Origin: Patescibacteria group bacterium
GTDB taxonomy: Bacteria; Patescibacteriota; Minisyncoccia; UBA6257; HR35
Reading direction: 5' to 3'
Assembly (NCBI GenBank): GCA_030549845.1
Contig: JAUQQN010000001.1
Location: 30,001-62,000 of the forward strand
DNA length: 32,000 bases
Shown here: positions 4,833 through 23,064 of the stretch, piece by piece
How the letters are laid out: the number at the start of each line of letters is the position of its first letter
Position numbering within the stretch: position 1 is the stretch's first letter
Position numbers and translations under genes: made by a program
Notes under the pieces: generated by a model
What the model was told of the DNA's origin: nothing
Databases searched by the model: none
The model's input: the letters and a program-made list of their open reading frames with translations, nothing else

Positions 4833-7061
4833 TTATTTTAATCTCAAAGCATTTAAAGCAACGATTATTGTGGATAAACTCATAAAAATTGCACCTAAAG
4901 CTGGAGAGAGTAAAATTCCTTTAAAAGCTAAAATTCCAGCAGCAAGAGGAAGAGCAATAATGTTATAACCAGTTGCCCAAAATAAATTTTCTATCATTTT
5001 TTGATAAGTTTTTCTTGAAAGTTCAATTATTTTGACAATGTCTCTTGGATCATTCTTTACTAAAATTATTCCTGCAGATTCAATGGCAACATTTGTTCCG
5101 GCGCCAATAGCAACTCCAACATCAGCTTGCATAAGTGCTGGCGTATCATTAATTCCATCACCAACCATCATTACTTTAAAGCCACGCTTTTGTAATTCTT
5201 TAACTTTATTTACTTTCTCTTCTGGTAAAACTTCAGCAAAATATTCATCAATGCCAAGCTCTTTTGAAACTTTCTCAGCAACTTCTTTTTTATCACCAGT
5301 TATCATTGAAACTTTAATGCCTAATTTATGAAGTCCCTTAACTGCTTCAAAAGATTCTTTTCTTATTTCATCTTCCAAAATAATTGCTCCTAAAATATTT
5401 TTCTCTTCAATTAAATAAACTATTGTTCCGATTTCAGATAAAAGTGGTTTTTCAATACCTAATTCTTTTAATAAATTATCACCACCCAAATAATAAAGTT
5501 TACCACCAATTTTTCCCTTAACCCCTCTTCCAGGTAAATTTTCAAAATCTTCAACTTTTAAAAACTCTAATCCATCTTCTTTTGCCTTTTCCAAAATTCC
5601 TTGAGAGATAAAATGAGAAGAATATTGACTTAAAGAAGCTGCAAGTTGAAGGATTGTTAATTCTTGTGAACCTTCTCGCGAACTATTATGTGAATTTTCT
5701 CGAATATTAAATTGTCTTCCGAGGTTCGTTCCGGCGGAGGTATTTAATATCTTTTTCACTTTAAATTTTCCTGAAGTTAAGGTTCCAGTTTTATCAAATA
5801 AAACAATATCTATTTTTCTTGCAAATTCAAGCTGGAGTCTATTTCTAATTAAAAATCCATTATGAACTGCTAAAGATGTTGAAATAGCAGCAACAAGAGG
5901 AACAGCTAAACCTAAAGCATGAGGACAAGCAATAATCAAAATAGTAACTAATCTTTCTAAAGCAAAATCAAAATCTTTTTTAACTAAAAGCCAAAGAGTA
6001 AAACTTAAAAGACCAATAAAAATAGCGATAAATGTTAAATATTTTGCAAAAACATCAGCTAAAACCTGAAGTTTTGATTTTGAAGCTTGGGCTTCTTTAA
6101 TTAGTCTTTTGATACCTGCTAAAAATGTCTCTTCACCAATTTTTGTTACTTTAATTTTCAGCATTCCATCACCATTAATTGTTCCAGCAATAACTTCTGA
6201 ACCAACTTCTTTCAAAACTGGCTTACTTTCACCAGTAATCATACTTTCATTAACTTCTGATTTCCCTTCAATAACAATTCCATCAGCGGGAATTTTTCCT
6301 CCTGGTCTTACTAAAACTATATCGCCTACTTTAATTTCTTCGAGTTTTATTATTTTTATTTCTTCTTTTTTATTAACAGAATCTTCTGCATTATCAAAGT
6401 CATCCTGCGAGCGAGAATCGGGTAGGCCGTGGGTAAATGTTTGATTTAATATTATTACTTCTGCTGTATCTGGTAATAATTTCTCAATTTCTTGTAAAGC
6501 TCTCTGGGCTGAAGAAACTGATTTCATTTCAAAATAATGTCCTAAAAGCATAATCGTAATTAAACTTGTCAGTTCCCAGAAAAATTCATGTCCAATTTTA
6601 AATAAAACAGGAAAAACACTATAAACATATGCAGAAGATATGGCTAAACCAATTAAAGTCATCATCCCGGGATTTTTAGCCTTAAGTTCGCGATATGCAC
6701 CAACAAGAAAAACAAAGCCACCATAGAAAAAAATAATTGAGCCAAGAATTAAAATCAAATATTGAATTCCCTCGAAAGATGGCAATTTTATCCCAATAAA
6801 TTTTTGAAAGACATCAGAATAAAGAATGATAGGAATAGTCAAAATTAAAGAAAGCCAAAATTTATTTAAAAAATCTTCAGCACGGTGGCCATGATGTTTA
6901 TTTTGGGTCGCGAACTTCTGCGAACTTTCTCGCGAACTGATGTGAATACTACTTTCGCTAGAAACATCTTCAACTTCAATGAGTTTCATTCCACAGACAT
7001 GACAATTACCAGGCTTTTCCTGTGGTTCAATACACTGCATTGGGCAAATATATTTCTTCAT
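4833..7061 (-). CDS. copB: Copper-translocating P1B-type ATPase (CPH-motif, CopB-like) with an N-terminal CPMxxx...CxxCGM metal-binding module
   Basis: P-type motifs are present: DKTGTLT, MITGD and MVGDGINDTPAL. The transmembrane metal site is IIACPHALGLAVP (CPH). The actuator region reads ITGESKPV. The N-terminus reads YICPMQC...PGNCHVCGMKL and includes a His-rich stretch, NKHHGHR. I place the start at Met21 of the tracked ORF (7061) because a promoter/operator-like sequence sits at 7072-7102. Confidence 0.93.
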   Translation of the reverse strand: MKKYICPMQCIEPQEKPGNCHVCGMKLIEVEDVSSESSIHISSRESSQKFATQNKHHGHRAEDFLNKFWLSLILTIPIILYSDVFQKFIGIKLPSFEGIQYLILILGSIIFFYGGFVFLVGAYRELKAKNPGMMTLIGLAISSAYVYSVFPVLFKIGHEFFWELTSLITIMLLGHYFEMKSVSSAQRALQEIEKLLPDTAEVIILNQTFTHGLPDSRSQDDFDNAEDSVNKKEEIKIIKLEEIKVGDIVLVRPGGKIPADGIVIEGKSEVNESMITGESKPVLKEVGSEVIAGTINGDGMLKIKVTKIGEETFLAGIKRLIKEAQASKSKLQVLADVFAKYLTFIAIFIGLLSFTLWLLVKKDFDFALERLVTILIIACPHALGLAVPLVAAISTSLAVHNGFLIRNRLQLEFARKIDIVLFDKTGTLTSGKFKVKKILNTSAGTNLGRQFNIRENSHNSSREGSQELTILQLAASLSQYSSHFISQGILEKAKEDGLEFLKVEDFENLPGRGVKGKIGGKLYYLGGDNLLKELGIEKPLLSEIGTIVYLIEEKNILGAIILEDEIRKESFEAVKGLHKLGIKVSMITGDKKEVAEKVSKELGIDEYFAEVLPEEKVNKVKELQKRGFKVMMVGDGINDTPALMQADVGVAIGAGTNVAIESAGIILVKNDPRDIVKIIELSRKTYQKMIENLFWATGYNIIALPLAAGILAFKGILLSPALGAIFMSLSTIIVALNALRLK
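6408..6445. repeat. GC-rich 38-bp element, copy 1 (inside copB, in frame)
   Basis: GCGAGCGAGAATCGGGTAGGCCGTGGGTAAATGTTTGA matches 7433-7470 at 35 of 38 positions. It encodes QTFTHGLPDSRSQ within an insertion relative to the usual A-domain spacing upstream of GDIVLVRPG. Confidence 0.85.
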
Positions 7062-12861: not shown

Positions 12862-12966
12862 TTTTTTATTATATTTTTAATGCCGCCCTCTTTGGATAAA
12901 TTTTACAATAAAAACTTAAATTTTTATTTTAGTAAATATATCTTTAAAAATAAACTTAAAATTATA

Positions 12967-13158
12967 AATTTTACATTTACAATGCTATAGCATTTTAAAT
13001 TTACAGCCCTTTCAGTAAGCATAGTTTTTTAAATGTGGGCTCATTTTTGAAGGTAGGCTAAGGATTTTAAATTTACAATGCTATAGCATTTTAAATTTAC
13101 AATTCTTTTTAAATAAGCATATTCTTCGAAGGTGGGTTAGAATTTTTCAGAAGCTCCA
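12967..13158. repeat. Tandem direct repeat of two ~96-bp units, each with the core TTTACAATGCTATAGCATTTTAAATTTACA
   Basis: The 30-nt core occurs identically at 12976-13005 and 13072-13101 and contains the 14-bp perfect palindrome AATGCTATAGCATT. The unit tails are about 70% similar (..TAAGCATA..T..GTGGG..). Confidence 0.8.
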
Positions 13159-13421
13159 CTGCAGTGTTTTTTTTAATCTTCATTATAAATAATGGGATTT
13201 TCTGAAGTACTGTAATAAGCAATAAATGCTTTAAAGGATTCAAAGGAATTTCCATCATTGAATTTTCTTCGATTTTTGATATTGTTTCTAGTTTAAATCC
13301 TAGATAGTAGATTATCTCATGACATATTTTATCCGTTATTGATTTTGGCGAGTCATCTTCTGATGGTTTATAAACTATTACAGGATAAAAACCAAACTCT
13401 TTTTTTATACCTATAACTCCA

Positions 13422-14108
13422 TCAACATCGAGAAAGGGTGCTTCGCCTAGAAGTGTGGTAAGGGTGAGTTTTAAGGGATAGAAGAAAATTATTTAAATAA
13501 TAAGTAAATGAGGAAATTATTGAAAAATTGTGTTGGTTAAGAAGATCTTCTAATTCTTTTTTTGAATAATATTTTCTTGCTGATTCTAAATTTTTTATTA
13601 TTTTAAGAAGTAGTTTAAGATAAAAAACATCAGGCGAGGGATCAACTAATAAAAATAAACCATTATCTTTTAAAACTCTTCCTATTTCTTTTAAAGCTGA
13701 GTCTGGATTGTAGAAATGATGGAAAGTATCCACACAGATAACAAAATTAAAACTTCCCTCTTCAAAGGGTAAATTTTCAACATTAGCTTCAATAATTTTT
13801 GTATTATTTAGATTAAAAGTTTTGTTTATTGCTTTTTCAACCATACCTTTTGAGAAATCAACACCGAAGAATTCTACTTCTTTAAATTCTTTTGCTAATT
13901 TGAAAATAACTTCAGCTGTTCCACATCCAACATCTAAAAATTTGCTTTTAGGTTTTAAGTATCCATTTGTTTGATTTTTGATTACTTCGATTACTTTTTT
14001 ATAAAGTTTTTCAAAATAAATTAATCTAAATATCGAAGAATCATAAAACCTTGACCACAAATCAAACTGTTTTTTATTTAAATTTTCAAATTCTTCTTTT
14101 GTCATCAA
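13422..14108 (-). CDS. Class I SAM-dependent methyltransferase (Methyltransf_11/25-like)
   Basis: Motif I is FLDVGCGTAEVIFKLA. The post-I region is GVDFSKGMVEKA, followed by FNFVICVDTFHHF and GLFLLVD. Confidence 0.85.
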   Translation of the reverse strand: MMTKEEFENLNKKQFDLWSRFYDSSIFRLIYFEKLYKKVIEVIKNQTNGYLKPKSKFLDVGCGTAEVIFKLAKEFKEVEFFGVDFSKGMVEKAINKTFNLNNTKIIEANVENLPFEEGSFNFVICVDTFHHFYNPDSALKEIGRVLKDNGLFLLVDPSPDVFYLKLLLKIIKNLESARKYYSKKELEDLLNQHNFSIISSFTYYLNNFLLSLKTHPYHTSRRSTLSRC

Positions 14109-14191
14109 AAGTTTTTTAAATTAAGAATTATATAACCTTAAAAAACTAAAAATAGTATTCAAGATAAAATTGAATTCAAAAATAATTATTT

Positions 14192-14893
14192 TTATATACT
14201 ATTTCTTTTTTCAAAATAACTACAATAAGCACAATTTGGATTAGCAAGTGGAGGAGTTTTGCTATAATAAACCTCTTTTAAGTTTTCTAAAATTTCATCA
14301 TATTTTTCATAATCTAAATTTTCTACCAAAACAACATCTCTTTCTTCAATTATTAAGGTTTCTCGCCTGTTTGAATCCCCTAATTCTTTAATGATATCAA
14401 TTTTAACTACATAAAAAGCTCCATAATTTGCTACTTTTTCTTTATTTTTTAAAAGCAAGTAGCCATAAATTTCTAACTGTCTTTTATAACTCTCATAAAT
14501 TTGAAAATTTTTACTTAATGTTGTTTTGAAATCAAAAGGTACAAGATTATTATGTTTATCAATTAAAAGTTCATCAATCTTCCCCCAATAAATAAAATTA
14601 TGTTCTGGATGATAAAACTCTATGCCTTTACCTCGCCAAGTTTTTAATTTTTCAAAATCATCAAAAAGATCTAATCCAAGTTCTTTTAATTTTTCTGGCT
14701 TAGTAAAGCTTTGGCGGTAATTGTCGAATTCACTTTTAATTAATGGATCGTATTTTTGGCCTATAAACCCACCTGTAATTCCTTCAGGTCTTTTAATATT
14801 ATGTTTAATTTCTAACCAAAAACACCTTGGACAATCAATAAAAAGTTCAATTTTAGCTCTGGATATTTTGATAGTACTGTTTGTATTTTTCAT
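14192..14893 (-). CDS. Cas4-like / RecB-family PD-(D/E)XK nuclease with Cys cluster
   Basis: The N-terminus carries SRAKIELFIDCPRCFW and the C-terminus carries NCAYCSY, a Cas4-type C...CxxC arrangement. The core reads GKIDELLIDKHNNLVPFDFKT (D...D-x-K) and is followed by a QLEIYGY (QxxxY) motif. Confidence 0.8.
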   Translation of the reverse strand: MKNTNSTIKISRAKIELFIDCPRCFWLEIKHNIKRPEGITGGFIGQKYDPLIKSEFDNYRQSFTKPEKLKELGLDLFDDFEKLKTWRGKGIEFYHPEHNFIYWGKIDELLIDKHNNLVPFDFKTTLSKNFQIYESYKRQLEIYGYLLLKNKEKVANYGAFYVVKIDIIKELGDSNRRETLIIEERDVVLVENLDYEKYDEILENLKEVYYSKTPPLANPNCAYCSYFEKRNSI

Positions 14894-15193
14894 GGAAAAA
14901 CATTTTAAATTTCGACATATTCCAATTTTTTAATTATAGAACAATAATTTAAAAAATCTAATAATTTTTATCATTAATCATTCAGCCAACAAAAAAGGCC
15001 TTAAAATTCCTTAGTCATTGTTCAAATTTATTTTCTCAATTTCTAGAGAAAATAAGAAAGGTAAATTTTTAAAATTTCTAAAGTAAATTTTTAAATTTTA
15101 TAAAATACCTTTTTAATTTCGGCCTTTTTGAATAAATTTCGCAATAAAATTTTTATTTTTCAATTTTGGTTAGTATATTTTTAGATACCATGT

Positions 15194-15430
15194 TTAAGCT
15201 GTTTTAAATTTATTATTATTTTTGATCTTTAATACATCCAAAATCTTTTTTTCTAAGTTTTTATTCCAATTTTCTATATCGGTTAATTTATTAATAAAAT
15301 CAACTAATTTGTAATATTCTATAACAAAACAATTATCTAACCCCTGAACATTTTCTATTTTTCCATTTACAAAAACAACAATTGGGATTGTTTTTATATT
15401 GATGTTATTATCCTTTAATAACTCATTTAA
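15194..15430 (-). pseudogene. Displaced C-terminal part of the NERD gene, in a different frame
   Basis: My manual translation gives LNELLKDNNINIKTIPIVVFVNGKIENVQGLDNCFVIEYYKLVDFINKL..., the expected continuation of a NERD domain (..IPxVVF..). It would join 15427-16020 if the T7 run (coding strand) at 15429-15435 had 8 T. Confidence 0.6.
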
Positions 15431-16020
15431 AAAAATTCTCTTTCTAAAATTTGGCGAATCGGATTTTTATAATAAAGTTTATATCTCATTTTACCTTTTT
15501 CTTTGCGATATAATTCTTGACCACTAACCCTAAATAATCCGTGGTAATTTTTAATCTCTAATAAAATTATTCCTTTAGGCCCTATTAGTATTCCATCAAT
15601 ATCACCTGTCTCTATATTGGATAATTCATAATTTTTAATATAATTGGATAATTCATAATTTTTAATATAAACATATTTATCACTCAAATGTCTTTTTAAA
15701 AATTTTATAACCCTATTTTCTCCTTCTTCGCCTTTTATCAAAGAGTCTAATTTATCAATTAAACTATCTAAATACTCAAAACCTCCTAAAATAGAAAATA
15801 ATAAAAATACAATTAAAAAGAAAATTGCTATACTGGAAAAGAATTTTTTGACAGGCTCTAAGAATTTAAGAAATTCTGGTAATGGTACTAATGAAAAAAC
15901 GCCTGTAAAAACAAAAATAAGCAAAAATACTAATAAAAGTAAAAGAATAATTGTTGGTTTATTGCCAATTTTTTCAAGTTCTTTGGCGAGGTATGATTTT
16001 TGATATTCTATTATCCTCAT
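15427..16020 (-). CDS. NERD (nuclease-related domain) protein with N-terminal TM helices, interrupted by a frameshift
   Basis: GEEGENRVIKFLKRHL...GDIDGILIGPKGIILLEIKNYHG...NPIRQ matches the NERD pattern. The ORF ends immediately after a homopolymer run. Confidence 0.75.
   Translation of the reverse strand: MRIIEYQKSYLAKELEKIGNKPTIILLLLLVFLLIFVFTGVFSLVPLPEFLKFLEPVKKFFSSIAIFFLIVFLLFSILGGFEYLDSLIDKLDSLIKGEEGENRVIKFLKRHLSDKYVYIKNYELSNYIKNYELSNIETGDIDGILIGPKGIILLEIKNYHGLFRVSGQELYRKEKGKMRYKLYYKNPIRQILEREFF
15616..15669. repeat. Perfect 27-bp tandem duplication inside the NERD ORF
   Basis: ATTGGATAATTCATAATTTTTAATATA occurs twice back to back. It is in frame and duplicates YIKNYELSN. Confidence 0.9.
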
Positions 16021-16130: not shown

Positions 16131-19022
16131 TCACAACTTGCCTTTTGTAAAATTTACAATGTTTTCTAAGATCTTATCAAAATTTTCAAACCAATAATCT
16201 TTATAGCCGGAAGATCTAACTCTATCTTCATCTTCTGTGTATAGAAAACAAAAAATATAACAATTTAGATTTTTGTATTGGAATTTTTTAGGCTTATTTT
16301 CTTCTTCGAAAATTTCTTTATATCCTAAAACTTTATCTTCAAAATTCCTATAACTTGTACTCTTAGGATCAACAAAAACTATATAATAATCATTCCCTCT
16401 CTTAAGCCAAAAAATAAAGTCTGGTTTGAAGTTTTCAAACTGGGATTTTTCATAATTATAGTAAGGAATATAGACATCATCTAAATTTTCATCAATTTTG
16501 CTAAATAACCACCAATCAAAATTATTGAATTTACTTTCTTTACTAGCAATATATTTTTCTAACTCTTCTATAAATTTAATCTCGCTTTTAGTTTTTATTA
16601 TATGTTTTATATATTCCACTCTCTCATTTCTTTGCAAAATCAAAGGAAGATAATAATGTTGAGGAATGTATTTTAAATCTAATTCTCTGCCATATACTGA
16701 AGTTTTTTTATTTTCAAATACATTCTTTATTAAATTTTCAAAATTTTTAAAGTCTGCTTCTTCTAATTCAACAATAATTTTTTTATAATGCTTTATCTCA
16801 TCCTTTAATTCTTCAATATTTTCTAATTCTCTTAATTCTTTATTCCAGAAATTAAAAATATTATTCAAAACTACTACGGGATTTTTGACAATTGACTGAT
16901 CTACAAATTTGTAAAACTGATTTTCTCTTTCAAAAGAATTTTTAACAAATTTCAAAAGTTTAGGCTCAACATTGTAATTAACTAACAAAATTCTTTCATC
17001 TTTAATAAATTCGTAAAATTCTCTAACCAAACTCAATTCATCTCGTGATAATTTAAACCTTGATTTTACTTCACTTTCTTCAAATAACTTTTTATCTGCA
17101 AGCTTGTATTTAGGAATTAAGAGAATTTTATCTTTTATAATTTCTTCATTTTTAAATAGACGAAGTTCTTTTTTAGCTTTTGTTTCTTTTTTAAACTCTT
17201 CTGTTTCTTTTAAGATCGTCTCCAATGCTGATTTGTTAGTGCCAAATATAAATAAAGTTTCTATAGAAGGCACAAAATCTTTAATTTTTTGAAAAACATC
17301 CTTAAACTCTGGATCTAAATCTATATATATTCCTCTTTTCCTTTGATTTTTAACAGGTTCAATTCTTACCCCTCTCCCTATTGACTGCAAAACAAATTTC
17401 CTAGCATTTTTCTGCGTGCCAATATTTATAAACATTATTATATTCGGCCTATTGGAATCCCATCCTTCATAAAATACTCTTGAACCAAGTAAGATGTTTA
17501 CTGAAGATTCTTCATCATTTACCCTTTCAAAAAATCCTTCATTTTCGAATGTATGATTTACTTCAAAATTCAATAACTCATTTTTAAGCCAATTTGGCAT
17601 TTGTCCGGTTTTACTAAGACAAAAATGAGAATCTGATGTTTTTAATTTAAAAGCAACTTCACTATTATTTGAAGGATTAAAAGATATTTCTATTTCTCCA
17701 GGTTTTTCCGAATTAAACACATATCTTAAAATATCTCGGTAATTTATTGATTGTAAAAGTTGGTCATCAAATTCAATTTCCTCGTTTGGCAGTATATATT
17801 CCTTTTTATTATTTAATTCTTCTATAATTTCATTTTTAGCCTCTTCAATAATTTTTTCTTCTACTTTTCCTTTCCCTATCTTCTCTAATTCTTTAAATAT
17901 TTTCTTTAAATCAGCTAATTCATTATCAACAGAGTTTACTAATACTAAAATTAATGGCTTATGATATAAATTGGTTTTGATTTTTCTAATCTCTTCAAGA
18001 TTCTTTTTAATATATGTCAAAAGAATTAATGCTTTAAGAATAATTTTTTGTTTAGTTAAATCATCAAAATCTTCTTTATTTCTAAAAGCATCAATATCTC
18101 TTTCGAAAATATAAATTTTCTTACCGAATCCTTTTTCAATAAAACTTGAAAGATTAAATTCATAAACGCAAGTTACTAAATCTCTAATATCATCAAAAGT
18201 CGCTGAAAAATTAAAAAGAAAACCATTTTGTGAAAGAATAGAATAGATATGTTGTCTTTTTGATTCATCTTTGTCGCCTTTATGAGCTTCGTCCAAAATT
18301 AAATACCATTTACCTTCATTATAATAATTTCTAAAATCTATAATTTTTTCTTTCTCTTCATCGCTAAACAAATCTGATCTATAATAAAAAACAATATTTT
18401 CTTTAAAAAGTTTTAAAGAAGATTTTATTTTCTCATAATCCTTAAAATTACAAAGTTCAATTCTATTTTGTATATTAAACTTATTATATTCATCTATGTG
18501 CTCTTGAAATTGCTTTATTAAATCTTCCCTATGAGTCAGAAATAAAATGTCATAATCAGGTATTTCTCTTCTTTGAATCAAATTTTTGAGAATTTCTATA
18601 AGTTTAATAATCACCAAAGTCTTTCCGCTCCCAGTTGCCATCCAAAAACTCATCCTATTAATGAAATGCTTAAAACTTATCTCGTTATTTTCTAACTCGT
18701 AATAATCAAAAATAAATTTATGCTTTCTTTCTTCCTTGTATTTATGAGAAACTTCTTGAGGATTTAAGCCCCAATCTAAATATTTTTCATACAAAATTTT
18801 CTTTCTTCGCTCATTAATTTCTAAATTTTCATTTTCAAAATAGTCATACTCTTTATCATAGTAGAACCATAAAATTTTTAAAGCATTCTCTAGAGCTTCT
18901 TTTTGAAAATCATAAAGTTTTTTATTCTCAGAGAAATTATCTAAATCAAAATTCTGCCAATTAAAAGATAATTGATTTTTATCAATATTTTCAGCTATTT
19001 TTTGAAGAATTAACTTTGCCAT
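16131..19022 (-). CDS. res: Type III restriction enzyme Res subunit (SF2 helicase plus C-terminal PD-(D/E)XK nuclease)
   Basis: Walker A is WMATGSGKTLV. Motif II is LILDEAHKG. Motif III is FNFSATF. Motif VI is QSIGRGVRI. The C-terminal FKPDFIFW...IVFVDPKS is a nuclease-like motif. Confidence 0.88.
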   Translation of the reverse strand: MAKLILQKIAENIDKNQLSFNWQNFDLDNFSENKKLYDFQKEALENALKILWFYYDKEYDYFENENLEINERRKKILYEKYLDWGLNPQEVSHKYKEERKHKFIFDYYELENNEISFKHFINRMSFWMATGSGKTLVIIKLIEILKNLIQRREIPDYDILFLTHREDLIKQFQEHIDEYNKFNIQNRIELCNFKDYEKIKSSLKLFKENIVFYYRSDLFSDEEKEKIIDFRNYYNEGKWYLILDEAHKGDKDESKRQHIYSILSQNGFLFNFSATFDDIRDLVTCVYEFNLSSFIEKGFGKKIYIFERDIDAFRNKEDFDDLTKQKIILKALILLTYIKKNLEEIRKIKTNLYHKPLILVLVNSVDNELADLKKIFKELEKIGKGKVEEKIIEEAKNEIIEELNNKKEYILPNEEIEFDDQLLQSINYRDILRYVFNSEKPGEIEISFNPSNNSEVAFKLKTSDSHFCLSKTGQMPNWLKNELLNFEVNHTFENEGFFERVNDEESSVNILLGSRVFYEGWDSNRPNIIMFINIGTQKNARKFVLQSIGRGVRIEPVKNQRKRGIYIDLDPEFKDVFQKIKDFVPSIETLFIFGTNKSALETILKETEEFKKETKAKKELRLFKNEEIIKDKILLIPKYKLADKKLFEESEVKSRFKLSRDELSLVREFYEFIKDERILLVNYNVEPKLLKFVKNSFERENQFYKFVDQSIVKNPVVVLNNIFNFWNKELRELENIEELKDEIKHYKKIIVELEEADFKNFENLIKNVFENKKTSVYGRELDLKYIPQHYYLPLILQRNERVEYIKHIIKTKSEIKFIEELEKYIASKESKFNNFDWWLFSKIDENLDDVYIPYYNYEKSQFENFKPDFIFWLKRGNDYYIVFVDPKSTSYRNFEDKVLGYKEIFEEENKPKKFQYKNLNCYIFCFLYTEDEDRVRSSGYKDYWFENFDKILENIVNFTKGKL

Positions 19023-19057
19023 TTATTAAATTTTAAAATTAGGATTTATTGTTGCTG

Positions 19058-19834
19058 TCATATAATTAATTTTTCTAAAATATTCCTATCTAATCTCTTT
19101 AAATATTCATTAACATAAAAATAGTCTGGTTCTTGTTTAATCGCTCTTGTTATTATTCTAAAAGCTTTATCTAAGCCTATATCTTCTTTCAAAACTTGAT
19201 TGACATTGAAAAGAATTAAACCTATTCCAAATCTTAAACATAAAGATTCTAATCTACTTAAATCAACCTGAGATATTGTCTCTGGTAATACTAAATAAAC
19301 TTTATGACTAAATAATTTATAAGAACAAGCTTGACCAAAAGCAATAATTGGCTGATTAGTATCTATTTTAATTTCAGCACTAATTATTTCTGGTAATGGT
19401 TCAATTATTGATGGCTTCGAGATTTTATAAATTCCTAAAACATCTGGAGTACCCCATCTATCTCTAAACACACTACCTCCTAATGGTATAGTTTTTGTAC
19501 ATCCTTCTAATTCTTGTACTAAATAATCAGCAAATTTTTGATAGATTGTCTCTTCTCTAATTTTTGTTTCTTCTTCAAATATTTTTTCTTCCTTAAGATT
19601 TTCATAAAATTTCCTTAAAATATAGAGCCCTCTTTCTGGTTTTATTACATCTTTGATTTTTTTATCTAAATTCCATATTTCCCATTGAATAAGTTTTAAT
19701 TTAATTTCTGGATATTCTTCGTAAATTTTATTTACTAATTTAGAATACCTTATTCCTTGAGGTGAATTTTCTAAAATCTCCAAAGCTTTTTCTCTTATTG
19801 CTTCCTGTTTTTGTTTATGGGTTAGTTTTTTCAT
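19058..19834 (-). CDS. Hypothetical protein: N-terminal winged-helix-like region plus PD-(D/E)xK-like core
   Basis: 258-aa ORF between mod and res. The N-terminus (ILENSPQGIRYSKLVNKIYEEYP...ERGLYILRK) looks wHTH-like. The central region, E...WGTPDVLGIYKI...IISAEIKID...FGQACSY, fits an E/D...ExK...Q nuclease-fold pattern. The function is inferred only. Confidence 0.45.
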   Translation of the reverse strand: MKKLTHKQKQEAIREKALEILENSPQGIRYSKLVNKIYEEYPEIKLKLIQWEIWNLDKKIKDVIKPERGLYILRKFYENLKEEKIFEEETKIREETIYQKFADYLVQELEGCTKTIPLGGSVFRDRWGTPDVLGIYKISKPSIIEPLPEIISAEIKIDTNQPIIAFGQACSYKLFSHKVYLVLPETISQVDLSRLESLCLRFGIGLILFNVNQVLKEDIGLDKAFRIITRAIKQEPDYFYVNEYLKRLDRNILEKLII

Positions 19835-20504
19835 TTTTATAATTTAAATACTTCAAAAGATATATAAAATCCTCTTTAACACCAACAATTTCACTAATAC
19901 TCATAGGGGTAATATTTTTTTTCATAACAATATGTAAGGATAATGTATGATTACTAGGTTTAATTTTCATTGTTTTTATTTGAAAATATTTTAATATTTC
20001 ATTAAACATTTTTTGAATATAATCAATTATCTCTTTTAATTCATCTATGATGTCATTAAATTTAATAACTGATAATATATCTACCGCAGATAATTTTTTA
20101 TTGATATCTATATGGGCTACAACCTTATTTACAGTTTTTAAAATCTCATTAATTTCATTGTTTTTATATTTATCAATTTCTGATTCAATTTCTTTTAATT
20201 TCTGCACATCTTCCAATAAATTTTTGTGTTGGAATTCTTTAGAGAAATAGATTAGGGGAAAATATAAAGAATATACATCATCTCTTTCTCTTTTATCGAA
20301 AATTTTTCTTATTTCTAATAAAGTTATTAAAAGAGTGTTGATAACAAACAAAATAAAAAAATTTCTAAATTTTTTTATTAGAATATGATTCCTATATTCT
20401 TCTAGTACATTTAAATTTGTTTTAACAAAAGCAATTTCTTTTGCCAAAATATCTTTCCACTCTTCCAGTTTTTTAATTGCATTTTTATTTAAAATTTCTT
20501 CCAT
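19815..20504 (-). CDS. Hypothetical protein, possibly HEPN-like (AbiU2-type layout) with a non-canonical N-x4-H motif
   Basis: 229-aa all-helical-looking ORF. It has a hydrophobic helix, FFILFVINTLLITLLEI. ILKTVNKVVAHIDINKK sits where AbiU2/HEPN families carry R-x4-6-H. There is a 4-nt gap to the mod stop and a 20-nt overlap with the next gene. Confidence 0.35.
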   Translation of the reverse strand: MEEILNKNAIKKLEEWKDILAKEIAFVKTNLNVLEEYRNHILIKKFRNFFILFVINTLLITLLEIRKIFDKRERDDVYSLYFPLIYFSKEFQHKNLLEDVQKLKEIESEIDKYKNNEINEILKTVNKVVAHIDINKKLSAVDILSVIKFNDIIDELKEIIDYIQKMFNEILKYFQIKTMKIKPSNHTLSLHIVMKKNITPMSISEIVGVKEDFIYLLKYLNYKNEKTNP

Positions 20505-20508
20505 CTTT

Positions 20509-23064
20509 TCACCACCAAATTAATTTTTTAATTTCTGGCAAATGTTTTTCTAATTGATTTAAACTTACTTTTTCTCCATCTTCAAATTCAACTTCATTTT
20601 CTGAAATTTTTTTAAGCCACTTGCCTTTTAAACAAGAAAGTGTTTCAGCAATATCTACATTTGAATAAATTTTACTAAAATCAATTTTTATCTTGTTATT
20701 TTCATAATTAATTTCTAAGGCTTCTAACATTTTAGGGTCAGCCATAAATATATAATTAAAATCTTCTTTAAATAATTTAGGTGATTCTTTTTCAGTCAAA
20801 TATTTTGCTTTATCCAAAATATCTGGAAATTGCTCAAGTTCATAATATTTGAAAAATCCACCTGCTTTATCTTCGTTATATTTTTCCTTAACATCCTTTT
20901 CTTTTGATATTCCAAATTTATCATAAGCTAAAACCTTTTTCATTCTTGGTAAAACTACTGTATAAAAATGCTCTCCCATCTCTACACCAATCCATTTTCT
21001 TTTTAGTTTATGTGCTACTGCTGTTGTTGTGCCACTTCCTAAAAAGAAATCCATAACTAAATCGTCTTCGTTGGAAGTAGATTCTATGACACGTTTGAGA
21101 AGGATTTCAGAGTTTTCGGTAGGGAAACCAGTTGATTTGGATATAACGTAAGTGTAGCCTAAAATATCTGTCCAGTCATTATTTACAGGAACCTCTCGTC
21201 TTAAATAGAAAGCATCAAACTCCCTAGAGCTACATTTTTGACAACAGAGAATCTTTAGATTAGGATCAGTATTTTGATATTCCCATCCACAATTCTTACA
21301 CACGATTTTTATATTTCCTTTACTTATTTCAATTTCTATTCTCTCTTGAGAAAATTGCCAATGAGTTCCTTTTGGTGCTTTAATAATCATTCCCCAAAAT
21401 ACCCGTGTTGGTTCTCCTCGTTCCCCAGGGAAAAACATTATTGTCCATTCTAGCTTTTCGTCAGGTTTAGGTCTTAAAGGTATAGTTATGGTTGCTTTTT
21501 GTTTATTCACGGAAAAAAATATTAAGCTTTCTGTATCATTTTCAAATTTATTTCTCTCTTTACTCTCAGTTCTCTTTCCTTTTCTTACTATTATCTCATT
21601 CCTAAAATTCTCCTTTCCAAAAATCTCATCCATCAAAGGTCTTACAATCCAATTCCCATTGTAATCACATCTAACAAAAATACTTCCTGTATCTTTTAAC
21701 AACTCTCTTGCAAGCCTTAGTCTATTTTCAAGCATTGTAGCCCAGGTGGAGTCTTTGTATTTTACAGAATAGAAATAATCTGCTTCTTGTTCTTTATTAA
21801 ATGGTGGATCGATATAAATAGTTTGCACTTTTTCTTTAAATTTTGGTAAGATTGTATTTAATGCTTGATAATTTTCGCTCTTTATTAACCAACCATCTAA
21901 ATTTTCATCTAAATTATCAAAAAGGCTTAAAATTTCAAGTTCTAAATCTTTAAAGTATTTTGTATCTATAGGTAAAAATTGATATTTTTTGTTTAAATTT
22001 TTGCCACTTAAATCTTTTTGAATGATTTTATTTTTGTCAAAATCTTCATCAATTATATTTAATTCTTTCCATTCTTTTATTTGTTCACTAAAATTTTTAT
22101 GATTTATTATCTTTTCAATAATTTGGATTCCCTTTTCATGATTTTGTTTTACTAATCTATCTAAAGTGATAACATAATTCGAATTTAAAACAAATCTTGG
22201 TTTATTCCATATTTTTACAAGTTCATCCTCAAATTTAGAGACAAAATCAATAATAAATTCTGCGCATTCCCTTAACTTATTTATCTGATCGATTCTTTCT
22301 GGAGTATAATCTTGGTTAGTTGAGAAAAATTTATTATAGATAAATAGTTTTAATTGTTCGGTTAAAAAAGCTTTTGCATTTTTATGAATAAAATAATCTA
22401 TTTCTGATTGTTGTTCAAATTTTTTGAATGCTTTTTCTAAAATTTCTTCTGTTAACTTGATATTCTTGTTTTTAAATTTATTTTTTAATTTTTTGAGAAT
22501 TTCATCTATTTTTGTTGTTTTCCCTTTTTCTGAATAATAAACTTTAAAAACAAATCTTTCTTCTGATGTTTGACTTTCATCTAATTCATAAATAAGCTCT
22601 CTTTTCTCATTTGCTTTTTTAGCTTCAAGAGTTGAAACATCAAAGTAAAATCTAAATTCTTTATTATTTTCTTGTAAGACAACTTCTAATGATTTATATA
22701 TTCTATCGGTTTTAAGATAATAAAGATCACGGGTTTTCCAAAATAAAATTATGTCTTCTTTATCTGTATAAACCCTGTCATAAATTTGATGATAGTATGG
22801 AGTATTAACAAAATAGATTGATCCTGATTCTGAAAAATATCGAGAAAAGAAAGTATAAATTTTTTCAAAAAGTTCTTCCTTAAAATTTGGGTATTTCTTT
22901 AAAATTTCTTTTATTTTTTGTTCGAGCTTAGGTTTAAAAACTTCATCGTAATATTTCTTTTTAATTTTCATCAAATTTATATAGCCACCAGTGCCCTCAA
23001 TCTCAGCCCCAACAAACATATTAGTTAAAAGATTGTAAAATTTTTGCTCATAATCTTGTCTCAT
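20509..23064 (-). CDS. mod: Type III-like DNA methyltransferase Mod subunit (beta-class N6A/N4C amino-methyltransferase) with a ~400-aa N-terminal extension
   Basis: Motif IV, IYIDPPFN, lies about 250 aa before motif I, VMDFFLGSGTTTAVAHKL. That order defines the beta class. A Cys4 ribbon, CKNCGW...CCQKCSS, sits in the putative target-recognition region. Confidence 0.88.
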   Translation of the reverse strand: MRQDYEQKFYNLLTNMFVGAEIEGTGGYINLMKIKKKYYDEVFKPKLEQKIKEILKKYPNFKEELFEKIYTFFSRYFSESGSIYFVNTPYYHQIYDRVYTDKEDIILFWKTRDLYYLKTDRIYKSLEVVLQENNKEFRFYFDVSTLEAKKANEKRELIYELDESQTSEERFVFKVYYSEKGKTTKIDEILKKLKNKFKNKNIKLTEEILEKAFKKFEQQSEIDYFIHKNAKAFLTEQLKLFIYNKFFSTNQDYTPERIDQINKLRECAEFIIDFVSKFEDELVKIWNKPRFVLNSNYVITLDRLVKQNHEKGIQIIEKIINHKNFSEQIKEWKELNIIDEDFDKNKIIQKDLSGKNLNKKYQFLPIDTKYFKDLELEILSLFDNLDENLDGWLIKSENYQALNTILPKFKEKVQTIYIDPPFNKEQEADYFYSVKYKDSTWATMLENRLRLARELLKDTGSIFVRCDYNGNWIVRPLMDEIFGKENFRNEIIVRKGKRTESKERNKFENDTESLIFFSVNKQKATITIPLRPKPDEKLEWTIMFFPGERGEPTRVFWGMIIKAPKGTHWQFSQERIEIEISKGNIKIVCKNCGWEYQNTDPNLKILCCQKCSSREFDAFYLRREVPVNNDWTDILGYTYVISKSTGFPTENSEILLKRVIESTSNEDDLVMDFFLGSGTTTAVAHKLKRKWIGVEMGEHFYTVVLPRMKKVLAYDKFGISKEKDVKEKYNEDKAGGFFKYYELEQFPDILDKAKYLTEKESPKLFKEDFNYIFMADPKMLEALEINYENNKIKIDFSKIYSNVDIAETLSCLKGKWLKKISENEVEFEDGEKVSLNQLEKHLPEIKKLIWW

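Follow-up and report, generated by a model that had tools for sequence, protein, structure and literature searches.

A Type III-like restriction-modification operon of a Patescibacteria group bacterium that probably hosts two independent embedded defence genes

Why should the modification and restriction genes of a Type III-like restriction-modification (R-M) system be held apart by two further genes? The question is raised by a 32,000-nucleotide stretch of the genome of a Patescibacteria group bacterium (GenBank assembly GCA_030549845.1, contig JAUQQN010000001.1, positions 30,001 to 62,000 of the forward strand), referred to here as the window, in which mod (20509-23064) and res (16131-19022) are split by two genes that we call X (19815-20504) and Y (19058-19834), all four being encoded on the minus strand. 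An initial annotation had described these as four co-directional open reading frames (ORFs), and the ORF list and the sequence gave exactly the coordinates and spacings that it reported, with a gap of 4 nt between mod and X, an overlap of 20 nt between X and Y, and a gap of 35 nt between Y and res. It went on to propose an undescribed four-gene composite in which restriction is combined with a second layer resembling abortive infection (Abi). The idea of an Abi-like second layer fits the evidence presented below, and the composite does not. The reading we prefer, with a probability of about 0.65, is that a Type III-like R-M backbone hosts two independent embedded defence genes, making the locus an operon-level consortium and not a four-subunit machine.

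The outer genes encode the backbone. Mod (851 aa) is a Type III-like, beta-class N6/N4 DNA methyltransferase (MTase) with an N-terminal extension of ~400 aa, which matched Pfam N6_N4_Mtase (1e-40) and, over its full length, the PADLOC Type III methyltransferase model PDLC03638 (MTase_III; 3e-293). Its motifs occur in the order DPPF (residue 419), a variable region bearing a zinc ribbon, and FLGSG (674), and the DPPF motif suggests N6-methyladenine (m6A) as the methylation product. No phase-variation repeats were found in mod. Res (963 aa) is a superfamily 2 (SF2) helicase-nuclease subunit matching Pfam ResIII (3e-18), with further matches to DEAD and SWI2_SNF2, and carries GSGKT (131), DEAH (244), QSIGR (546; QSxGRGxR) and a C-terminal PDF (867)...DPK (885) as a predicted nuclease site of its own. 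GSGKT, DEAH, PDF and the D and P of DPK were invariant among seven Res homologues, the K of DPK being H in the related locus L015, and in QSIGR only Q, S, G and R were invariant. We use the term "Type III-like" because the match of Res to the PADLOC REase_III model was weak (61 bits), there was no match to Pfam RE_endonuc, and the homologues of Res carry PF27151 YagJ; the isolated C-terminal 344 aa of Res had no Pfam match. One metagenomic relative, L122, has a tandem pair of full-length window-type mod genes (819 and 811 aa) upstream of its single res, which is at 6200. These tandem mods resemble the multi-mod Type III loci described in Mycoplasma.

Comparison of related loci showed that the mod|res junction serves as a slot for cargo genes, which turn over rapidly. 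Analysis covered the best 80 loci of each scan, and of the 80 that a Res alignment recovered from metagenomes, 59 had both mod and res visible. Mod abutted res in 33 of the 59, mostly with gaps of -34 to +16 bp, and the other 26 (44%) carried one to three cargo genes at the junction, amounting to 41 proteins in 30 clusters. The Pfam families represented among this cargo included RhuM (5), Fic/DOC (5), DarT, and the AAA_21/AAA_15 and AAA_13 families of PrrC-like ATPases, along with MNT plus HepT/HEPN, RE_CfrBI, Schlafen AlbA_2, NYN, KAP NTPase, DUF4365, DUF6119, ThsB_TIR and SeqA_C; PADLOC recognized PDC-S05 and PDC-S23. Y itself was junction cargo in 2 of the 26 occupied loci and was near Res in 6 of the 79 loci with a detected Res. 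Loci bearing Y were scattered over ~9 positions of a neighbour-joining tree of Res, with one clade (the window, L166, L169, L005, L006 and L002) in which Y is fixed. We also observed a 330-aa AAA_15/AAA_21 ATPase as recurrent cargo, in L005 (9538-12370) after Y and paired with a 156-aa gene, and in L170 (871-1863) directly after an X homologue, a recurrence which points to cargo modules being shuffled in different combinations.

Three near-identical loci, those of the window, of L166 (an Aenigmatarchaeota metagenome-assembled genome, MAG) and of L169, illustrate cleanly how an R-M locus turns over by modules in nature. The gene order is mod, an unrelated 288-aa gene, Y, res and a NERD gene in L166, and mod, an X homologue, Y, Fic, res and a 263-aa gene in L169; the 288-aa gene that takes the place of X had no Pfam match. 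Identities of the window proteins to those of L166 and L169 were 97 and 97.5% for Res, 96 and 94% for Y, and 82.5 and 82.8% for Mod, while X is absent from L166 and 38% identical in L169, the locus with the extra Fic gene. In blastn alignments, homology between the window and L166 breaks exactly over X (20504-19815) and in the middle of mod (21573-21126), the sequence flanking the mod centre being 92-97% identical. The second break coincides with the Mod target-recognition region (21126-21573, minus strand; ~aa 500-640, between DPPF and FLGSG), which contains a CxxC...CxxC zinc ribbon and where protein identity to L166 and L169 is 12-32%, versus 92-100% elsewhere; the recognition domain is different in all three loci. 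Read from the alignments, this is the pattern of a classic Type III recognition-domain swap, and it implies one backbone with three predicted methylation specificities and three cargo sets.

These comparisons bear directly on the possibility that the products of mod, X, Y and res make up a single obligate four-component system, with X and Y as specificity, sensor or effector subunits of the restriction complex. Such a system would agree with genes that are tightly packed, co-directional and partly overlapping, and with the recurrence of the order mod-X-Y in L169, but the majority of mod/res loci have no insert and ~30 unrelated cargo families occupy the junction elsewhere, X is found with no Y next to it (L170, L172) and Y without X (L166, and L015, L017 and L148, which read mod-Y-res), Res has a predicted nuclease of its own, and most Y homologues have no R-M neighbour. 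Synteny largely refutes the four-component explanation, which we consider very improbable. Four genes can be packed tightly without encoding the subunits of one machine.

X (229 aa) is hypervariable cargo in the first slot after mod. It matched Pfam HEPN_AbiU2 (PF18734) over residues 11-165 with 33.3 bits, above the cut-off of 26.8 (E 4e-8), which bears out its earlier description as a HEPN-like protein of AbiU2 layout, and its homologue P0122 is likewise annotated PF18734. An exhaustive HMMER scan of 1.84 billion representatives returned three relatives of X at 33-40% identity, a word-indexed search of 5.8 billion proteins returned only X itself, and no record of the exact X was found in a contig index. 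Judged by these searches, the X family is rare; it is fast-evolving and a very divergent sub-lineage of AbiU2. H131 is invariant in the alignment of the four sequences; the HEPN arginine is replaced by valine in X and its closest relative, and is R only in the distant P0123 and P0124. In the AlphaFold2 model of X (pLDDT 74), long helices form a bundle that is followed by a C-terminal hairpin; Foldseek gave no significant match to it, the HEPN toxins 7bxo and 5yep appearing only at E 0.7-1.3. Each of the four members of the family occupies the mod|res slot of a window-type system, in the contexts mod-X-Y-res (window), mod-X-Y-Fic-res (L169), Mod C-terminus-X-AAA_15/21 (L170) and X followed by the Res N-terminus (L172); wherever the upstream gene is visible (window, L169 and L170), X comes directly after mod, and in L172 it directly precedes res. 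Two of these loci (window and L169) also have Y, which was not seen at the other two. X is specific to this R-M family and independent of Y.

The same distribution speaks to another explanation, in which X and Y are a toxin-antitoxin (TA) pair or some other described two-gene module that landed here by chance. The 20-nt overlap of the two genes suggests translational coupling, and HEPN proteins are often TA toxins (PMC3710099), but the two families differ greatly in size (4 versus more than 1,600 members), each is found without the other, and neither X nor Y matched a TA or defence model of NCBIfam or any family of PADLOC-DB v2.0.0 (0 families at E 0.1 or better). We regard a TA pair, or another module landed by chance, as very improbable. 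The initial annotation had itself raised the possibility that an independent module inserted here by chance; independent insertion is essentially what we observed, but it is recurrent and non-random, which is not chance. Its view that the inserts differ from the DUF4391 proteins of mod-DUF4391-helicase variants stands, since Pfam gave no DUF4391 match for X or Y at E 0.1 or better; the literature, searched for DUF4391, yielded nothing.

Y (258 aa) belongs to a family of 1,647 proteins at E 1e-3 or better, all of them labelled hypothetical. There was no convincing match of Y to Pfam, NCBIfam or PADLOC, the only signal being a sub-threshold WH_Rok, but structure prediction and conservation agree with the initial annotation in pointing to a winged helix followed by a PD-(D/E)xK domain. 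Residues D131, E154, K156, Q168 and Y172 are invariant in 49 homologues and form a PD...ExK...QxxxY signature, the QxxxY part of which we take to be RecB/NucS-like. Foldseek searches with the AlphaFold2 model (pLDDT 86) matched AF2093, BsaWI, MspJI, XisH, SfsA, YaeQ and MUS81 on the nuclease side, which we read as PD-(D/E)xK-type nucleases; the N-terminal winged helix matched Rok, Rpa2 and Fur, and a profile of Y run against PDB sequences returned Rok only (0.003). Two homologues, P0032 (331 aa) and P0103 (321 aa), were found to have a second, tandem N-terminal winged-helix domain (columns 1-85 of alignment A1). Identity within the family is 45-65% across bacteria and archaea. Relatives of Y were found at 338 loci in 185,579 species genomes (one genome per species), spanning the candidate phyla radiation (CPR)/Patescibacteria, DPANN, the anaerobic methanotrophic archaea (ANME) and Methanophagales, Planctomycetota, Dehalococcoidia, Aquificota and others. 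Y is all but missing from viruses, with no INPHARED record and 2 of 2.9 million IMG/VR contigs containing it, and plasmids yielded one distant match.

The neighbourhoods of Y are diverse. It is beside a window-type Res in 6 of 80 genome loci (L005, L006, L010, L015, L017 and L036), with a further case, L002, from protein look-up, and it also occurs in other Type III families, as MTase, Y and a different ResIII protein in L012 and L022 and as ResIII+RE_endonuc, Y and MTase in L078. In L036 (4288-13996), Y was seen between two Res families, a canonical ResIII+RE_endonuc upstream and a window-type Res downstream, with three unidentified genes (558, 369 and 169 aa) between Y and the downstream Res. 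Elsewhere Y adjoins small N6_N4 MTases without res (L029, L037, L041, L045), or STAND or SMC-like ATPases (L052, L064), and for the majority of Y genes no neighbouring MTase or helicase was detected. A ~335-aa N6_N4 MTase lies immediately upstream of Y in both L041 and L045, a pair of loci from a Pirellulales MAG and a Desulfobacca MAG; the two MTases are 70% identical, and the MTase-Y pair may be a mobile two-gene unit. On the Novosphingobium resinovorum pSA1 megaplasmid (L085, 5539-13733), a Y homologue with 33% identity comes immediately after a 1,148-aa Eco57I/MmeI-like methylase, and the opposite strand encodes an ABC-3C system (MC5, CTD9 and SMC-like ATPase); the PLSDB gene table for the pSA1 record lists one feature only and none of the L085 genes.

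Neighbouring N6_N4 MTases invite the idea that Y is a sequence-specific Type II endonuclease cognate to the adjacent MTase, the more so as an MTase is immediately beside Y in several loci showing no res, and as one MTase-Y pair has been kept across phyla (L041 and L045). A cognate enzyme is hard to reconcile, however, with the at least six unrelated MTase families that adjoin Y, with the Novosphingobium homologue that adjoins an Eco57I-like enzyme, with a Y that is 94-96% identical despite the swapped recognition domain of Mod, and with the many copies, most of the family, that have no MTase nearby. We think it very doubtful that Y is a Type II enzyme.

Y was also observed beside housekeeping genes, including the alanyl-tRNA synthetase gene (AlaRS) in two unrelated phyla (L068 and L071, from Thermocrinis, and L084, from Planctomycetota) and those for aspartyl-tRNA synthetase (AspRS; L041), leucyl-tRNA synthetase (LeuRS; L070) and PurL (L063, L064). 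These settings, together with the QxxxY motif and the unusually high conservation of the family across bacteria and archaea, would fit a role of Y as a nuclease of DNA repair or recombination, or as a selfish endonuclease of the homing type, that hitch-hikes in R-M operons. The distribution of Y is patchy, however; insertion of Y at precisely the mod-res junction has recurred in different families, and its neighbours include some restriction enzymes, STAND or ABC ATPases and an ABC-3C system. A repair or homing role is in our judgement unlikely, though less so than a Type II enzyme.

A closer association with R-M is envisaged if Y is an accessory subunit where it is fixed, either as a second nuclease that completes double-strand cleavage or degrades cut DNA, or as a DNA-loading factor. 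Y has been gained repeatedly by three Type III families, always beside res or mod, and in the clade that includes the window it is conserved to the same degree as Res (96 and 94% versus 97 and 97.5%). Sister loci of that same clade, L086 and L087, lack Y, however, the nuclease motifs of Res are intact, and most Y homologues have no adjoining helicase or MTase. An accessory role for Y, while the least improbable of these alternatives, is still an outside chance. A more specific version, that Y supplies a nuclease missing from Res, was rejected, as the PD...DxK of Res is conserved.

If the locus is instead an R-M backbone with two independent guests, as we prefer, the following division of labour can be proposed. 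From homology and motifs, the central recognition domain of Mod would determine the site at which Mod methylates host DNA, and Res, an SF2 ATPase with its own PD...DxK nuclease, would join Mod in cutting incoming DNA that is unmethylated. Guests at the mod|res junction would inherit the transcription of the operon, to judge from the spacing, and X and Y are probably co-transcribed with it. X would most likely act as a PrrC-like second line that is silenced by the R-M proteins and released once R-M is neutralized, whereupon it would attack or bind RNA and stop growth. Y, for its part, would be an autonomous nuclease with a Rok-like winged helix for binding DNA and an intact PD-ExK/QxxxY site for cutting it; that it is an independent DNA nuclease effector, in this general sense, seems to us somewhat better than an even bet.

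What Y would recognize can be narrowed by exclusion. Its targeting cannot be tied to the methylation site of its neighbour, because the recognition domain of Mod has been swapped while Y remained 94-96% identical, and because the MTases that partner it are unrelated and most copies have no adjacent MTase. Rok-style targeting of AT-rich DNA would be suicidal in a genome of 25% GC. With these two modes set aside, our best guess for Y, a tentative one with the odds somewhat against it, is modification-dependent cleavage of the Type IV kind, by analogy complementary to R-M, through which Y would cover viruses whose modified DNA escapes the Type III enzyme. More speculatively, and with little confidence, we suggest that Y might represent a new and widespread family of stand-alone defence nucleases drawn to N6/N4 MTase operons, reading a generic methylation-related state of DNA (unmethylated or hypermodified) and not a sequence, and thereby acting as a plug-in restriction module for unrelated MTases, with the Type III-like mod|res junction as a dedicated, previously unsurveyed hotspot for cargo.

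Several points weigh against the consortium. The mechanisms given above for X and Y are ones that we infer. X has no Rx4-6H motif (no R.{4,6}H), the corresponding segment being VNKVVAH with V at the position of the catalytic R; a Foldseek search of its model against the PDB gave nothing at E below 0.28; and no NTPase match was found in its 229 aa with Pfam. With the arginine missing, the NTPase domain absent and the evidence for the fold weak, catalytic RNase activity of X is uncertain, and X may be a weak, non-canonical or purely binding version of HEPN. Y showed no sequence relationship to Mrr, having no match to Pfam Mrr_N or Mrr_cat at E 0.1 or better and an hhalign probability of 1% between its profile and EcoKMrr, and for this reason the Type IV idea draws on architecture and context only. 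In the clade in which Y is fixed, a Y that is as conserved as Res also fits a true accessory subunit. Lastly, genes in the related loci were called as naive longest ORFs under genetic code 11, many of the related contigs are truncated, and the neighbour-joining tree of Res carries no support values.

The surroundings of the four genes were also inspected. A scan of the window found no terminator-like site on the minus strand within the mod-X-Y-res cluster. A sigma-70 promoter scan of this 25% GC DNA performed as chance would (59 found versus 58 expected), and it probably does not apply here, the closest relative being the MAG of an archaeon (Aenigmatarchaeota, DPANN). Downstream of res on the minus strand is a gene (15206-16020) for a membrane-anchored NERD protein (Pfam NERD, 1.5e-15), which is intact at 263 aa in L166 and L167 and is split by a frameshift near residue 188 in the window; tblastn showed the switch between two frames near this residue, plus a 9-aa duplication, and an exact 27-nt tandem repeat at 15616-15670 encodes YIKNYELSN twice. 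Either the window copy has become a pseudogene or the frameshift comes from an error of assembly. NERD genes were also seen 3' of res in L118 and L161. Further along, ~2.2 kb of the window (12946-15110) is missing from the otherwise collinear L166; this segment encodes a PDDEXK_1/Cas4-like nuclease ORF (14192-14893) and a SAM-dependent methyltransferase ORF (13422-14108), and may be a further insertion beside the R-M island.

The general pattern into which this locus falls has already been published, contrary to the expectation of an undescribed phenomenon (PMC3632139; PMC3710099; bioRxiv 10.1101/2024.01.29.577857). R-M systems of all four types include variable additional genes, PrrC among them (PMC3632139), HEPN domains have been linked to R-M systems, with AbiU2 listed in R-M operons (Anantharaman et al., 2013; PMC3710099, Table 1), and "guilt-by-embedding" has been applied to defence genes embedded in Hma, BREX, DISARM and Type I R-M systems, in a survey that did not extend to Type III (Payne et al., 2024; bioRxiv 10.1101/2024.01.29.577857). 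The present locus resembles the last of these in having variable toxin, Abi or nuclease genes nested between core genes, some of the cargo in related loci matching PDC-S05 and PDC-S23, and differs in that the host is Type III-like and that X and Y match no model of PADLOC-DB v2.0.0. It thus extends the embedded-defence-gene principle to a Type III-like family, and guilt-by-embedding flags X and Y, both of them unannotated families, as candidates. Y is the more valuable of the two: the family is large and strongly conserved, its catalytic residues are intact, and no fewer than three Type III families have captured it repeatedly, in both bacteria and archaea, with very small-genomed CPR and DPANN lineages among them. 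Should Y prove to be an autonomous nuclease with a new rule for telling self from non-self, it would be a useful addition to the catalogue of defence systems.

Among individual systems, EcoP15I and EcoP1I resemble the backbone in architecture and motifs: their Mod is of the beta class and has its variable recognition domain in the centre, and their Res combines an SF2 ATPase with a C-terminal PD-(D/E)xK site, which in the Res of the window is a putative one. In contrast to them, the Mod of the window has its ~400-aa N-terminal extension, mod and res are separated by cargo, and Res has no RE_endonuc match and a weak REase_III match, with PF27151 YagJ in its homologues. For Y, the nearest analogy is architectural. 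Mrr consists of an N-terminal winged helix and a C-terminal PD-(D/E)xK domain, the same order as in Y, and mrr is beside hsdRMS in E. coli (locus hsdSMR-mrr, in the immigration control region). BrxU is found inside BREX (bioRxiv 10.1101/2024.01.29.577857), and Y resembles both EcoKMrr and BrxU as a putative stand-alone nuclease encoded beside a methylation-based system. Y differs from EcoKMrr in lacking detectable sequence homology and in having a winged helix closest to Rok; a reading of Y as an Mrr homologue was set aside for want of sequence support, and the comparison is kept as an architectural analogy only.

X has its closest parallel in PrrC, a HEPN effector that is restrained by the EcoprrI R-M proteins and released when R-M is disabled (PMC3632139; PMC3710099). 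As in the Type Ic EcoprrI system, a HEPN-family protein is encoded inside an R-M operon between the modification and restriction genes, and the X family is found only within one R-M family (4 of 4 members). X differs in lacking the ABC-ATPase domain and the HEPN arginine, and its host is Type III-like and not Type I; for X, physical masking and tRNA cleavage of the PrrC kind would be hypothetical. With other AbiU2 HEPN proteins, X shares the Pfam family and the reported R-M operon context, while differing as a rare sub-lineage of four members in the 1.84 billion representatives, with R replaced by V in Rx4-6H. The kind of arrangement found here is therefore already known, and what is new is a Type III-like family whose mod|res junction is occupied in 44% of loci, Y as a recurrent guest, and a lineage of X confined to this R-M system.

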